From the NCBI GenBank assembly GCA_965230435.1, contig CBDDLB010000004.1:836634-900633 (forward strand): 64,000 bases of DNA. Reading direction: 5' to 3'. The DNA is from Bacteroidales bacterium. Its GTDB lineage: Bacteria > Bacteroidota > Bacteroidia > Bacteroidales > JBDKHP01. The notes beneath the pieces are model-generated. The model saw nothing but the letters and a program-made list of their open reading frames with translations, searched no databases and had not been told where the DNA came from. Position numbers and translations under genes: made by a program. Shown piece by piece: positions 15,030 through 20,374 of the stretch (the stretch's first letter is position 1; each line of letters begins with the position of its first letter).

Positions 15030-16250
15030 ATGGAATATCAAAGCTTTGCTTTGCCCAATGGTATACGTCTGGTACACGCCTACGATGTTTCCTACGTTGG
15101 CCATTGCGGATTTTTTATCAATACGGGTTCTCGCGACGAGAAAGAAAACGAACTTGGTATTGCACACTTCATTGAGCATACCATTTTCAAGGGGACGAAA
15201 AAACGCAAAACCTATCATATCCTGAGTAGACTGGACGATGTTGGTGGAGAACTCAATGCCTATACTACAAAAGAACAAACGGTTGTTTACGCGTCATTTC
15301 TAAAAGAATACTTTTCGCGTGCTCTGGAACTAATTTCGGACATCGTTTTCAACTCTGTTTTTCCGGAAAAAGAAATCGAGAAAGAAAAAGAGGTTGTCAT
15401 CGACGAAATCAATTCGTACAAAGACAGCCCATCGGAACAGATATACGACGATTTTGAAGAGCATCTTTATAAAGAACAAGCTATCGGGCGTCAGATATTA
15501 GGCTCATACGAATCCGTTAAGGGTTTTAGTTCCAAAACCATACAGGAATTCATACGCAACAACTACTACACCGACCAAATGGTTGTGAGTATTGTTGGCA
15601 ATGTCAGCTTCAAAAAAGCCCAAAAGATGGTGGAAAGCCACTTTGCCCACATACCATCTAGGTTTAGCCCCAATAATAGACGCCAAGAGCCTGTGCATCA
15701 TATTTTTTCTACAAATGAAAGTGCAGATACGCATCAGGCGCACTGTATAATTGGTAGTGGTGCTTTTGGTGTATTCGATAAGCGAAAAACAACGCTTTCT
15801 TTGTTGAGCAACGTACTTGGTGGTCATGGCCTCAATGCTAGGCTGAACCTATCGTTGCGCGAAAAGCACGGCATAGCATACAATATCGAGTCTAACTATG
15901 TATCGTATTCCGACACGGGGCTTTTTTACGTGTATTTTGGTACAGATAAAGAAAATTTGGATCGAAGTCTAAGCCTGATTAACAAAGAATTTAAACTACT
16001 TCGGGATAAAAAACTTGGAGTCCTGCAATTGAGCCGTGCAAAGAAACAACTTGTAGGACAGATTGCGATCAGTGCCGACAGTAACGAGAACCAAATGTTA
16101 TCGATAGGAAAAAGCATGTTGCTCTTCGACAAGGTAGACCCACTGAAAGTGGTTTACAAACGAATAGATGATATTACAGCAGAAGGATTATTGGAAGTGG
16201 CAAACACAATACTTACAGAAGAACGGTTATCTACTTTAATTTTTCAGTAA
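15030..16250 (+). CDS. M16-family (pitrilysin-like) zinc peptidase
   Basis: Inverted zinc motif HFIEH (GIAHFIEHTIFKGT). 406 aa with the two-domain M16 architecture. Confidence 0.85.
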   Translation: MEYQSFALPNGIRLVHAYDVSYVGHCGFFINTGSRDEKENELGIAHFIEHTIFKGTKKRKTYHILSRLDDVGGELNAYTTKEQTVVYASFLKEYFSRALELISDIVFNSVFPEKEIEKEKEVVIDEINSYKDSPSEQIYDDFEEHLYKEQAIGRQILGSYESVKGFSSKTIQEFIRNNYYTDQMVVSIVGNVSFKKAQKMVESHFAHIPSRFSPNNRRQEPVHHIFSTNESADTHQAHCIIGSGAFGVFDKRKTTLSLLSNVLGGHGLNARLNLSLREKHGIAYNIESNYVSYSDTGLFYVYFGTDKENLDRSLSLINKEFKLLRDKKLGVLQLSRAKKQLVGQIAISADSNENQMLSIGKSMLLFDKVDPLKVVYKRIDDITAEGLLEVANTILTEERLSTLIFQ

Positions 16251-16415
16251 GCAAAGTAATCATGGACAGGTGGGCTGTCGGTTCAATGTATTGAGCAGAT
16301 TAATTCGCCAATTAGATAGAAAGAATAAGTTAGTCTAATGCACATTTTGTTTTTAAACTCAGTGCGTATTTTGCGTAGATAAAAGTTAAGGAGCAGATTG
16401 TAGGCTAGAGTAGCG

Positions 16416-16970
16416 TTATTCTTTTACCTCTACTGCCTTTTTCTTTCTAAATTTCTTTATCCAAATATACCACAACAAGAATGTGCAAGCATAAACAGTA
16501 TATTTAAAGACCATATGGTGGTTGATATTCATATATTGGGGAAGGTACTTATTGGTAAGGTATAGCCCTACTATACGTAAAATATTGATAATAAAAATAA
16601 TGATAAGCCCCATAGGGATAAACCAGAGCTTCGTATTTATTCTCCCCGGAAACACCACAATGAAACCAGCAAAAAGCCCCATCAGGTTCCGTCCAAGGCA
16701 ACCCTTGTCTAAATAAATTCCATTACCGCCTATTTGTTGAAGGGCTTTTCCATAAATAAGACTTTGCTCACCTACAAGCGAAAGGAAGAACTGAGATATC
16801 TCAAGAAGGATATGGGTGAGCCAGCCTGAAAACTCATCATAAAGAGGGTCGATAAAAACCAACCTACGCACAATATAGAAGAATAAATACCAAAATAGTC
16901 CGACGCAAATTGTATTAACAACAAACTTATTTAGCAGGCTTAAGCTTTTGTAATGCTCAATGATTTTCAT
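16416..16970 (-). CDS. Exosortase-family membrane protein, XrtF-like in size and architecture
   Basis: 184 aa, polytopic. Candidate catalytic Cys in LDKGCLGRNLMGLFAGF, conserved Asn/Arg helix IINILRIVGLYL, and His in NINHHMVFKYTVYACTFLLWYIWIKKF. This is the Cys/Arg/His layout of exosortases. Confidence 0.7.
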   Translation of the reverse strand: MKIIEHYKSLSLLNKFVVNTICVGLFWYLFFYIVRRLVFIDPLYDEFSGWLTHILLEISQFFLSLVGEQSLIYGKALQQIGGNGIYLDKGCLGRNLMGLFAGFIVVFPGRINTKLWFIPMGLIIIFIINILRIVGLYLTNKYLPQYMNINHHMVFKYTVYACTFLLWYIWIKKFRKKKAVEVKE

Positions 16971-17071
16971 GCAGTAGAATTTTCCAAAACGATTTTGCTC
17001 ACATTCAATAACCAGACCAATAGAAATGGGAACATTTAGATCATCGGTCTTATGAACTGGTTTTCTAACTG

Positions 17072-17122
17072 CATAAAAATAAAAAACTCTTTTCTTCTTC
17101 TTTAAATGAAGAGGAAAAGAGT
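17072..17122 (-). terminator. Hairpin plus T-run between the mini-ORF and the exosortase gene
   Basis: On the minus strand actcttttcctcttc / gaagaagaaaagagt form a 15-bp stem with one mismatch and a 7-nt loop, followed by tttttatttttat. Confidence 0.65.
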
Positions 17123-17147
17123 AGAATCATATCTCATTATTGAGTAG

Positions 17148-17348
17148 TTACTCTTTTTCAGCTTTTAATTTACGCGCCCCATATGCTAATCCTGCGAGTA
17201 AAAGTGCAGTTAGCCCACCGTCAATCGGTACTTCTGGGTCAATATCTGGTGGAACAGGTTGTGCTACTGCACTCTCTATAAAACTTGGAAAGAACATAAG
17301 GATTGTCATTATAACTAATATGCCAATTGCTTTTTTCATCTGTTTCAT
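17148..17348 (-). CDS. Mini-protein: signal peptide plus a short Pro/Asp-rich peptide plus a PEP-CTERM-style sorting tail (P-I-D type)
   Basis: MKQMKKAIGILVIMTILMFFPSFIESAVAQ / PVPPDIDPEVPIDGG / LTALLLAGLAYG / ARKLKAEKE. The start could be either ATG (17348 or 17339). The longer TTG-initiated track ORF is unlikely. Confidence 0.55.
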   Translation of the reverse strand: MKQMKKAIGILVIMTILMFFPSFIESAVAQPVPPDIDPEVPIDGGLTALLLAGLAYGARKLKAEKE

Positions 17349-17970
17349 AAATTTACTTCCAATTACCAGATGTAACTCCCAAACCGATTTAATCACCCCT
17401 GTCAATGTATTGAATGACCAAACTAGCTTAGTCGTTTCATTTTCGGAATAGTTCGTTATGGTACTTTTGTCTTAAGATTTTTGAAAGTCTGTAATCACCC
17501 TTGTATTAACTCATTACAATAACCATGCTATAAAAAACATGTCGATGAGATAAGGGGGGTAACTTATATAACTTTCATTTAGGAATGATACGTTATCCTT
17601 TTGTTTTTGTGCCAGATTTCAATGCTATTTTTCTCATACAAAAGTACTTTCATCAATGACTCAACAACAACAAAAAGAGTTGCTTGAGTATTCTGAAAAT
17701 CACTGTTATAAGCCTATAAAAAGGAAGAAAATAAAAAAATCAGAATAATAAAACAACATGCAAACGAAATAACTGGAATCTACAAAACGTAATTCCGGTG
17801 GAATAAGTTCGCTATATGGTAGAAATAAAATTCAGAATGTGGTTTGTGAAGCTGGGAGGGGAGCTGGATTTATAATCTCAGATCTTGTTCTTCTGGATCA
17901 CTTTACTTAAACGGAAGTTCTAAGCAGCAACGAGGCATATGATAAATTCATTTTAACAACTTCATTAGCT

Positions 17971-18000
17971 AAAAAAAAGCTGATCGAAACCGACCAGCTT
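17971..18000 (-). terminator. Rho-independent terminator after the 18010-19572 gene
   Basis: The minus strand reads aagctggtcg-gttt-cgatcagctt followed by tttttttt, 10 nt after the stop codon. Confidence 0.8.
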
Positions 18001-18009
18001 TTTAATACT

Positions 18010-19572
18010 TTATTTGCGCATTGTTGTGATAATCATACGTTTTTCGGTTTTAGCATCCAACCGCTTTTTGGGCTTGAACCCTCTTGTTTTGAACAATACT
18101 TCTTTCAGGTCTTCCACAATGAAATCGTAGCCATACTCTTCTTTTGTAACCAATGGAGTGAATTCTTCTGTTTGTGCATTAAGCTGGAGCGTTTCTACCC
18201 CAAACGGATCTGTACACTCAAACTCTTCAGGTAGTTCTATTACTTTATTAGCATTCGCATTGCTGATGTGGTAATTATCCAAGAGTGATACTTTTTGTCC
18301 ATCGGCAAGGTGATAAATTAGACGTATGTAACAGGCTTTATTAACACGTACGAACACTTTCATCGTTTCGCCTTCTGTAAAGATAAGCCCATCGTTACCT
18401 TTATTTGTTGAAAGGTCTACAATCAGCCCTCCGTTCGGTTTTTTCTCATTGTTGAACTGAACCAATGTTTTGATAGCGTTATCATAATTCGCAGGCTTGT
18501 AGCTGATGTTATTGTTGGTAAAGTAACTTTTGTCGATAGTAGCCTCACTGCTGGCCACAGTTTTTCGGGTCAGCATATCGCGGATGTTGGCTATGATCTT
18601 AATTTTATCGCCCTCTTCCCAATACGTACCTACCATATTGTAATACTCGCTTTCGTCTACATTGTCTATCATAGAAGGTTTGTGTATGGTAACCCTGAGG
18701 TCGTTGGCAGCTAGTTTACTCTCTAAGCTACGGGTAAACCTTTTCGAGAAAATGCTTGCCATCTTTGTGTCCTGAAATGTAAAATTGTTCAAACGGATTT
18801 CTCGTTTTATCGAATCTGCCTGATATTTCAAACCCATTGCAATAAGAAATGCAGCGTCGTCTATCGAAAGATCCTTAGCAGCTTGTAGCGATTTTACCCC
18901 TTTATTGGCTTTCAGTTTCAGGTCGTTTACTTCTTTGAAATATAAATGCGCAGCGTCGGTACTAACCCCCTCGAAGGTCATGATAAGTGTTTGTGCTTCT
19001 TCAATCTCGCGGAAGAGCGGCATACACGAATAATAACTCTTCAAGGCACTCTGGTTGTCATTCTGTTGTAAATAGGTAGATGCATTGTTCAGGTTTTGTT
19101 CGACGCGCGCTTTTTTACTAACTATTTTATTGCGGTAGAGCTTCGAGATTTCTGCTTTTTCTGCATAAGAAAATGCAAAGCCCTGTCTTTTTTTCTTGTC
19201 GAAATAGGTTTCGGTTTTCAGCCCCTGTAATTCGATGTTGGACAACGATACACTCGTGCGGCGAAAGGAGCTGTGTGCCTGCTCGTTCTGTGTCATCATT
19301 TGTGTGGTAGACATACTGCGTATGTTTACTTTTATCGATTCCACCAACTCTGTCCGGGCATCGCTCTGCAACCGGTCTTCAAGCTCATCTGGAACTCCAA
19401 AAGAAGTATAGGCTTCCGAAGCGAAACCTACAACGTATTTGTCTTCTGGAAACATCGATTCACGTTGATCGTATTCAACCCACTTAGGAGCCTTTTTTCT
19501 TTGTGCCATGCTCGGAACCGATACTAAGAGAACGGCTATTAGCAAGGGAAAATTTTTTTTTATTGTATTCAT
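18010..19572 (-). CDS. Secreted protein of unknown function (LPP20-like N-terminal region; DUF4384-like C-terminal region is a weak call)
   Basis: Start trimmed to ATG giving MNTIKKNFPLLIAVLLVSVPSMAQ. No catalytic motifs recognised. Confidence 0.55.
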   Translation of the reverse strand: MNTIKKNFPLLIAVLLVSVPSMAQRKKAPKWVEYDQRESMFPEDKYVVGFASEAYTSFGVPDELEDRLQSDARTELVESIKVNIRSMSTTQMMTQNEQAHSSFRRTSVSLSNIELQGLKTETYFDKKKRQGFAFSYAEKAEISKLYRNKIVSKKARVEQNLNNASTYLQQNDNQSALKSYYSCMPLFREIEEAQTLIMTFEGVSTDAAHLYFKEVNDLKLKANKGVKSLQAAKDLSIDDAAFLIAMGLKYQADSIKREIRLNNFTFQDTKMASIFSKRFTRSLESKLAANDLRVTIHKPSMIDNVDESEYYNMVGTYWEEGDKIKIIANIRDMLTRKTVASSEATIDKSYFTNNNISYKPANYDNAIKTLVQFNNEKKPNGGLIVDLSTNKGNDGLIFTEGETMKVFVRVNKACYIRLIYHLADGQKVSLLDNYHISNANANKVIELPEEFECTDPFGVETLQLNAQTEEFTPLVTKEEYGYDFIVEDLKEVLFKTRGFKPKKRLDAKTEKRMIITTMRK

Positions 19573-20374
19573 TTTGCGAAAGTTATTGATTTGCAAAAAA
19601 GGTCATAGACCTATAACTAATTAACAATGCCGTGTATTTAAATCTTCTGAAGAACCATGTTTTCTTCTTAAGTACGTGGTACTATTTAATTATGATCGCC
19701 ACCGTTCTGCTTCTCAGTATTGCAACAGATTACAAAGTGGCGGTTATATAAACTCATCTGCTTCATAACAAGTTTACAATAAATGGCTTTATCAGTAAAG
19801 CAATTTATTTTTGAAACCAAGATTTCACAGACTGTCTTTTTATCTTTACCTCTAATTCTTAAGCATGTGGTGCTTTTGTTAGGAAAAGCATTGTGCTAAT
19901 TTACAGTGTGTTGACAAGCCTTAAGAGACTTTTATATTGGCACACCCACTTACTTGTGTTATCTAAGTTGAAAATTGTGAGCTTATTAAGCTTGGATGTT
20001 TTAATTTGAAAATGAATATTTTAGGATAAAACAATGCAATTTTAGTGCTCAAAATACAACTCTGATGTTTAGATAAAACTCTGGCATAGGCCTGTGATTA
20101 GTTAAGTTAATTGAACTGGTTATTATAAGCAGTCAGCTATATTTGAATAGATTTGTTGTGTTGTTAAATCACTGATTACTTGAATGTTAAATAAATAAAA
20201 TAGGTTCATGACCTTAAAATCTGTAATGGTTTAGAGATAACTGTTAGGTCTGTTGCACTTCATCCTCCAAAATCTTGTGCATCTTACCAACAATTATTTT
20301 TATACGTTTACTTAAAACGTGCCGTTTGTCATCTTGACACCAACTTAAATTACAATTTGTTAAAACAACTTCAC

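Follow-up and report, generated by a model that had tools for sequence, protein, structure and literature searches.

An exosortase-family gene lies downstream of a PID-CTERM mini-gene

The window analyzed here is a stretch of 64,000 nucleotides (nt) from a Bacteroidales bacterium (assembly GCA_965230435.1, contig CBDDLB010000004.1, positions 836,634 to 900,633 of the forward strand). Two genes on its minus strand are the subject of this report, one for an exosortase-family enzyme and one, upstream of it, for a mini-protein with a tail of the PID-CTERM type. The 177 nt between the enzyme gene and the mini open reading frame (mini-ORF) hold a terminator-like hairpin. The features, numbered from the first letter of the window and with proteins given in amino acids (aa), are as follows.

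16416-16970, minus strand: 184-aa polytopic exosortase-family enzyme, XrtX-like and below the XrtX cut-off (NCBIfam and Pfam scores)
16518-16523, minus strand: Asn150-His151 (NINHH), with the putative catalytic His (alignment)
16575-16586, minus strand: Asn129-x-x-Arg132 motif (NILR, within NILRIVG; alignment)
16698-16700, minus strand: codon of Cys91, the putative nucleophile (GCLGRN; invariant in homologues)
17074-17122, minus strand: intercistronic hairpin resembling an intrinsic terminator, with a 9+5 bp stem, one internal mismatch, a 7-nt loop and then U6AU5 (fold)
17148-17348, minus strand: PID-CTERM mini-ORF, 66 aa, with a 63-aa form that starts at the second ATG, 17339 (NF046080 match)
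17151-17219, minus strand: GG, hydrophobic helix LTALLLAGLAYG and basic cluster ARKLK(AEKE), part of the tail GGLTALLLAGLAYGARKLKAEKE (hidden Markov model (HMM) match, residues 40-62)
17220-17261, minus strand: predicted mature segment QPVPPDIDPEVPID, 14 aa, Pro/Asp-rich, net charge -4, with P-I-D at its end (alignment)
17262-17348, minus strand: predicted Sec signal peptide MKQMKKAIGILVIMTILMFFPSFIESAVA, residues 1-29, with n-region MKQMKK, h-region, and A-V-A before Gln30 (sequence by eye)

The enzyme is XrtX-like

First, the family of the enzyme was examined. The 184-aa protein passed the cut-off of the exosortase/archaeosortase superfamily signature TIGR04178 in NCBIfam (51.1 bits, cut-off 23) and that of Pfam PF09721 (29.9 bits, cut-off 25.7). 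Cys91, Asn129 and Arg132 showed no variation, either among 20 close homologues or in a wider alignment of 81, and Asn150-His151 was invariant among the 20 close homologues and present in at least 90% of the wider set. The EpsH family has an invariant Cys, an Asn-Xaa-Xaa-Arg motif and a His, which Haft et al. (PMC1569441) suggested to form a transpeptidase triad on the outer side of the membrane, and Cys91, Asn129-x-x-Arg132 and His151 are the counterparts of these residues in the present enzyme, which does not have the EpsH-type Gly at His+4. The Cys/Arg/His layout described in an earlier, sequence-only reading of this stretch was thus confirmed. The AlphaFold2 (AF2) model of the enzyme, with a predicted local distance difference test score (pLDDT) of 90.6, was all-helical, with one small beta element immediately N-terminal to Cys91, and its long hydrophobic helices (residues 12-32, 40-65, 94-106, 111-142, and 144-174) are those of a polytopic membrane protein. 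Among solved structures, neither a sequence relative nor a fold relative of the enzyme was found (best Foldseek E = 1.1).

The top named model was that of exosortase X, XrtX (NF046081), at 121.6 bits, which is below its cut-off of 170. The XrtY model gave 68.3 bits (cut-off 160) and the XrtF model, TIGR04128, gave 62 bits (cut-off 90). The enzyme is therefore XrtX-like, without reaching the XrtX threshold, and is not XrtF. The sequence-only reading had called it XrtF-like, a label that agrees with XrtF being the third-best model and with the organism being a member of the Bacteroidota. However, the XrtF score is below its cut-off and the XrtX score is far higher. The XrtF and XrtX models were both matched by all 81 homologues, yet each of ten relatives scanned singly scored higher on XrtX than on XrtF, and seven of them were above the XrtX cut-off. 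In addition, neither of the flanking genes, which encode an M16 peptidase and a DUF4384 protein, matched TIGR04127, the partner of XrtF. The XrtF identity was rejected on these HMM scores, and we regard an XrtF system at this locus as very improbable.

The mini-ORF encodes a three-part protein

The mini-ORF is built of three parts, MKQMKKAIGILVIMTILMFFPSFIESAVA / QPVPPDIDPEVPID / GGLTALLLAGLAYGARKLKAEKE. The NCBIfam model NF046080 (PID_CTERM) covers residues 40-62 of its 66 residues with 39.8 bits (cut-off 26, E = 2.8e-10), and the 63-aa form starting at ATG 17339 is the gene called in the NCBI/ENA record. The earlier reading of this ORF as a mini-protein with a predicted signal peptide, a Pro/Asp-rich stretch (here about 14 residues long) and a tripartite tail like that of PEP-CTERM, but with P-I-D as its motif, was supported. 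No PEP-CTERM model (TIGR02595) was among the NCBIfam matches at E <= 1, and the 64-kb window holds no PID tail besides that of the mini-ORF.

The n, h and c regions and the A-V-A/Q site of the predicted signal peptide, as judged by eye, were conserved in the relatives of the mini-protein, and a small-x-small pattern followed by Q-P was seen in 13 of 14 mini-proteins of the clade to which the window belongs (described below). The predicted +1 residue, Gln30, is consistent with the Bacteroidetes Q-rule, by which Gln stands directly after the signal-peptidase site and forms pyroglutamate (PMC5837995). In the alignment of mini-proteins, P41 and D43 of the P-I-D motif were invariant, and the helix with its flanking residues was the best-conserved region. 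The GG, helix and basic cluster are predicted to be the part that the exosortase removes.

A chance origin of the mini-ORF in AT-rich sequence, with the exosortase as an orphan, might be suspected from the short length of the ORF (63-66 codons) and from the lack of any match for mini-proteins in a Pfam release older than PF28310. The missing match is explained by the fact that PF28310 (PID_CTERM) exists only in a newer release. Against a chance ORF stand the PID_CTERM score above cut-off, the gene call in the public record, homologues with the same three parts in the same position at 52 loci, and the 2131 cluster representatives that carry the tail. The chance-ORF explanation was rejected on these grounds and has next to no probability.

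The gene pair recurs in related loci

We compared 80 loci with relatives of the enzyme, one genome per species and almost all labelled Bacteroidota. A PID-tailed mini-ORF of 60-116 aa was present in 55 of them, and in 52 it was the same-strand neighbor immediately upstream of the enzyme gene (median gap 30 nt). This adjacency was found in Bacteroidales-like lineages, in Flavobacteriales and in Hymenobacteraceae/Pontibacter. Since the same pair recurs in 52 of 80 related loci, the arrangement is not due to chance, and the comparison of sequences supports the earlier proposal that the two genes behave as a dedicated enzyme/mini-substrate module. In Botryobacter ruber, three PID-CTERM mini-ORF paralogues lie within 4 kb on the strand opposite XrtX:

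L029:7085-7399, minus strand: PID-CTERM mini-ORF
L029:7844-8104, minus strand: PID-CTERM mini-ORF
L029:10813-11073, minus strand: PID-CTERM mini-ORF

These paralogues show that there is not always one peptide per enzyme.

A hairpin with a T-run recurs between the two genes

The hairpin in the window has a folding free energy (dG) of about -16 kcal/mol. The 91-nt region around it gave a fold z of -2.86 against shuffles, and only 1 of 200 shuffles was equally stable. A simple terminator scanner did not detect the element at 17074-17122, because its stem is poor in G-C pairs. Its position and form had been described accurately in the earlier reading, and elements of the same kind were found elsewhere: among mini-ORF/enzyme gaps of at least 20 nt, 14 of 32 contained a hairpin plus T-run, whereas composition-matched shuffles gave 2.4 +/- 1.5 (maximum 5). 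The elements in 13 related loci are analogous to that of the window and non-homologous with it; as their sequences are unrelated, what the loci share is the kind of element.

With a hairpin and T-run 3' of the mini-gene, transcripts of the peptide gene could greatly outnumber those of the enzyme gene. The recurrence of such hairpins supports the idea, put forward in the earlier reading, of expression of the peptide gene well above that of the enzyme gene, a ratio that we infer from the sequences. PEP-CTERM genes also tend toward single-gene transcription units (Haft et al., PMC1569441).

The 660 nt upstream of the mini-gene (17349-18009) contain no minus-strand ORF of at least 30 aa, and their only TAnnTTTG motif, at 17646, is some 300 nt upstream of the mini-gene ATG. 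An Rfam search over 16200-18100 gave only sub-threshold noise, and a tRNA scan of the window found none.

PID-CTERM tails in the sample seen are without cargo

A tail-only profile of 28 positions was searched against 1.84 billion (1.84e9) representative proteins at E <= 1e-3 and gave 2131 matches, which are cluster representatives. The best 150 of these 2131 were all 36-121 aa long (median 74), and every match examined by eye had the same order of parts: a signal peptide, some 10-60 residues rich in Pro, Asp and Gly, and the tail at the C-terminus. In this sample of the best 150 tail matches, PID-CTERM stands without a cargo domain. With a profile of the full-length mini-protein 2507 matches were obtained, the best 120 of which were 68-95 aa long, and in about 1 Mb of fetched loci all matches of the tail HMM lay in stop-to-stop segments of at most 144 codons.

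The short mature part has conserved motifs of its own. Flavobacteriales mini-proteins (P0021-P0140; L018, L020, L032, L038, and others) have an invariant CWPPPC immediately N-terminal to P-I-D, C-x(3-6)-C was present in 117 of the top 120 mini-proteins, and another mini-protein clade has GMGMG...PPCGGPFPPCPIPLD. With such clade-specific motifs, the mature part is more than a spacer.

The window belongs to a clade without the XrtX-associated membrane protein

Three curated NCBIfam families describe the canonical system: PID-CTERM (NF046080, also Pfam PF28310), XrtX (NF046081) and the XrtX-associated membrane protein (NF046082). Canonical enzymes, from the loci of Flavobacteriales, Hymenobacteraceae and Pontibacter, scored 187-236 bits on XrtX. 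In these loci a partner protein of about 160 aa is encoded 3' of the enzyme, with NF046082 as its best model (170.8 bits in locus L050, cut-off 75; 57-69 bits in three other loci). A partner HMM made from 47 loci found the partner in 49 of the 80. In the window and in loci L001-L017, however, the HMM found no partner (best E = 1.6). The earlier statement that no partner membrane protein adjoins the pair was borne out for the whole 64-kb window by tblastn and by this HMM.

In a neighbor-joining tree, the window enzyme and those of L001-L017 formed a separate, monophyletic clade. The enzymes sampled from this clade scored 121-134 bits on XrtX. The adjacent mini-ORF was kept in 14 of the 18 clade members, and their predicted mature segment has the form Q-P(4-6)-x-x-x-P-I-D, with 13-14 residues in 12 of the 14. 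In three clade members without an adjacent mini-ORF (L010:5149-5973, L011:5162-5977, and L012:4880-5719), a lipoprotein-like protein of about 275 aa with a CxxC (TNCPEAH) motif is encoded; its gene ends 5-250 nt before the exosortase start and the protein has no PID-like tail.

The absence of the partner in this clade bears on a second explanation, in which the mini-protein is no substrate. It would instead stay uncleaved in the membrane as a small single-pass subunit of the exosortase, or as its regulator, docking through its conserved small-xxx-small helix (LLAAGxAYG), and in this clade it might replace the missing XrtX-associated membrane protein. The helix and its flanks are indeed the best-conserved part of the mini-protein, and no cargo was present on any of the best 150 tail matches. 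However, in the tree the canonical loci encode both the mini-ORF and the partner, so the mini-protein is no replacement for the partner. Moreover, cleaved sorting signals have this same layout, with a motif, a helix and a basic cluster (PMC1569441), and a terminator of its own implies that the mini-protein would be expressed far above the enzyme, which is more to be expected of a substrate than of a stoichiometric subunit. We judge this explanation unlikely.

Genes around the module

The genes next to the module were also investigated. When 11 flanking proteins of the window were compared with the 80 loci by tblastn, none was conserved beside the module, and no export or immunity genes were conserved near it. 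Upstream and on the same strand lies the gene of a secreted protein of 528 aa (18010-19596, minus strand), which matched DUF4384 (30.2 bits) and, weakly, LPP20; it was conserved beside the module in none of the related loci. On the other side, an M16-family (insulinase-like) peptidase gene (15030-16250, plus strand) runs toward the 3' end of the exosortase gene and was not conserved beside the module in the related loci either. No ORF of at least 30 aa lies between the two (16250-16416).

The canonical loci have neighbors of another kind. A large protein with a type IX secretion system (T9SS) tail is encoded upstream of the mini-ORF in 37 of the 80 loci, and a Wzc-like tyrosine kinase nearby in 20, whereas neither is a neighbor in any locus of the window clade. 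The first is a protein of 600-1700 aa with a T9SS type A sorting tail, encoded directly upstream of the mini-ORF in loci among L018-L079 (e.g., L025:2583-5564 and L047:7135-10149). The second is a Wzc-like polysaccharide tyrosine autokinase or chain-length determinant whose gene, at L046:9187-11529 and in 19 other loci, is no more than about 4 kb away from canonical XrtX. In L081 (876-3944), L082 and L083 the T9SS-tail protein belongs to Pfam DUF8202 and is paired with the mini-ORF with no exosortase adjoining; the mini-protein there is P0099, which occurs in 258 blocks of the collection. The pairing of T9SS-tail gene and mini-ORF suggests a functional tie of the mini-peptide to a T9SS cargo.

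These neighborhoods also bear on a third explanation, in which the module serves peptide maturation: the exosortase would only hydrolyze at P-I-D and free a proline-rich peptide of about 14 residues that acts as a signal, antimicrobial or anti-adhesive. The order of precursor, terminator and enzyme is that of precursor-peptide/protease operons, and the length constraint of 13-14 aa and the clade-specific motifs, such as CWPPPC in Flavobacteriales, are in keeping with a free peptide. The lack of conserved export or immunity genes nearby speaks against it, and so do the polysaccharide kinases and T9SS surface proteins of the canonical loci, which point to envelope assembly. In addition, the related archaeosortase systems reportedly anchor their substrates to lipid. 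This explanation also seems rather improbable to us.

A proposed two-gene sorting module

We favor, with moderate confidence, the reading of the locus as a self-contained two-gene sorting module of the XrtX/PID-CTERM type, which belongs to a divergent Bacteroidota branch without the usual XrtX-associated membrane protein. The mini-protein would be exported by Sec and cut by signal peptidase I after A-V-A. The exposed Gln30 would then probably be cyclized to pyroglutamate, as is usual for Bacteroidota. The C-terminal helix and basic cluster would retain the mini-protein in the inner membrane, with P-I-D-G-G at the outer face, where the exosortase would attack at P-I-D through Cys91, with help from Arg132 and His151, and the helix and basic tail would be discarded. 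The acidic, proline-rich peptide of about 14 residues left over would go to an acceptor or be released; the candidate for the processed product is pGlu-PVPPDIDPEVPID, or a variant of it whose last residue is P, I or D. The enzyme itself would be made by read-through past the hairpin or from a promoter not recognized here.

Several points weigh against this reading. With 121.6 bits, the window enzyme does not reach the curated cut-off of XrtX, which is 170 bits, and the XrtX-associated membrane protein was not found within the 64-kb window by tblastn or HMM. In some genomes the mini-gene stands beside a T9SS-tail gene and not beside an exosortase gene, so the link of peptide and enzyme may not be strictly one-to-one, and longer PID-CTERM proteins may occur among the weaker matches beyond the best 150 of 2131. 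A sigma-70 scan and a search for the Bacteroidota -7 motif TAnnTTTG gave no convincingly placed promoter for either gene. A literature search for PID-CTERM, XrtX, NF046080 and PF28310 returned no paper and no experiment. Finally, we infer cleavage, transfer and an acceptor by analogy with sortases and archaeosortase A. For transfer to lipid, a precedent is reportedly given by the work entitled 'Lipid Anchoring of Archaeosortase Substrates' (PMC7157517).

We also put forward, as a tentative idea with less than even chances, that XrtX-type exosortases may sort no proteins at all. Their sole substrates would be cargo-less mini-proteins, and the enzymes would serve to attach a short, proline-rich peptide of defined length to an envelope lipid, a glycan or a T9SS surface protein. 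If so, the peptide of the window clade would be pGlu-P(4-6)-x-x-x-P-I-D, acidic and 13-14 residues long, and peptide tagging would be a new function for sortase-like enzymes. The partner-less two-gene form would then be the minimal version of the system and the simplest in which to find the acceptor.

Novelty and relation to known systems

The sequence-only reading had implied that such a module was new and offered a clue to what XrtF-type enzymes recognize. The novelty did not hold, as PID-CTERM, XrtX and the associated membrane protein are already curated: the module type is catalogued in NCBIfam and Pfam and widespread in Bacteroidota, and its existence is not new. The clue had likewise been anticipated, because curators defined the sister family XrtX with PID-CTERM, and for XrtF substrates this pairing is only an indirect clue. 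What is new here is the divergent, partner-less two-gene branch, which current XrtX models leave unnamed. The value of the work lies in the comparative picture, namely the cargo-less tails in the sample seen, the length constraint on the clade peptide, the recurrent hairpin, the partner-less clade, and the link to T9SS-tail proteins elsewhere.

The locus resembles the XrtX system in that its tail passes the PID_CTERM cut-off, XrtX is the top model of the enzyme, the mini-ORF precedes the exosortase gene, and the phylum is the same. It differs in the XrtX score, which is below the cut-off whereas canonical members are above it, in the absence of the associated membrane protein from the window and the 17 other clade loci, and in having neither the T9SS-tail nor the Wzc-like neighbor. 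The mature segment of the window clade has no Cys and is a Q-P(n)-x-P-I-D peptide of 13-14 aa, and the gap of 177 nt in the window compares with a median of 30 nt.

XrtF of Flavobacterium johnsoniae (TIGR04128, with partner TIGR04127) is likewise a small Bacteroidota exosortase, of about 175 aa, and is related to the window enzyme at the HMM level (62 bits). However, the window enzyme is under the XrtF cut-off and has no adjoining partner, and here a candidate substrate is encoded next to it. XrtF and its partner are required for surface colonization and biofilm formation in F. johnsoniae, and their substrates are unknown (PMC10936215); a minimal relative whose candidate substrate is obvious is thus of practical use for experiments. 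In our literature search, no reported substrate was found for any Bacteroidota exosortase.

Archaeosortase A/PGF-CTERM shares the homologous enzyme superfamily (TIGR04178) and differs in being archaeal, with large S-layer glycoprotein substrates and another motif. With PEP-CTERM/exosortase A (EpsH), the locus shares the tail of motif, helix and basic cluster and the enzyme Cys, Asn-x-x-Arg and His (PMC1569441). The window enzyme, at about 180 aa, is much shorter than the Pfam model of EpsH with its 254 positions, and aligns only to positions 102-251 of it. The Wzc-like kinase near canonical XrtX, which is absent from the window clade, echoes the link of PEP-CTERM/EpsH systems to exopolysaccharide. 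In contrast to PEP-CTERM tails, which in each genome are found on a large number of different Ser/Thr/Asn-rich proteins, often large ones, PID-CTERM in the sample seen occurs only on Pro/Asp/Gly-rich segments of 10-60 residues. XrtX/PID-CTERM thus pairs an enzyme with one tiny, easily synthesized candidate substrate, and the window clade cuts the system to two genes. In this two-gene form the cleavage site, acceptor and product are testable by mass spectrometry, unlike in the many-substrate PEP-CTERM systems.

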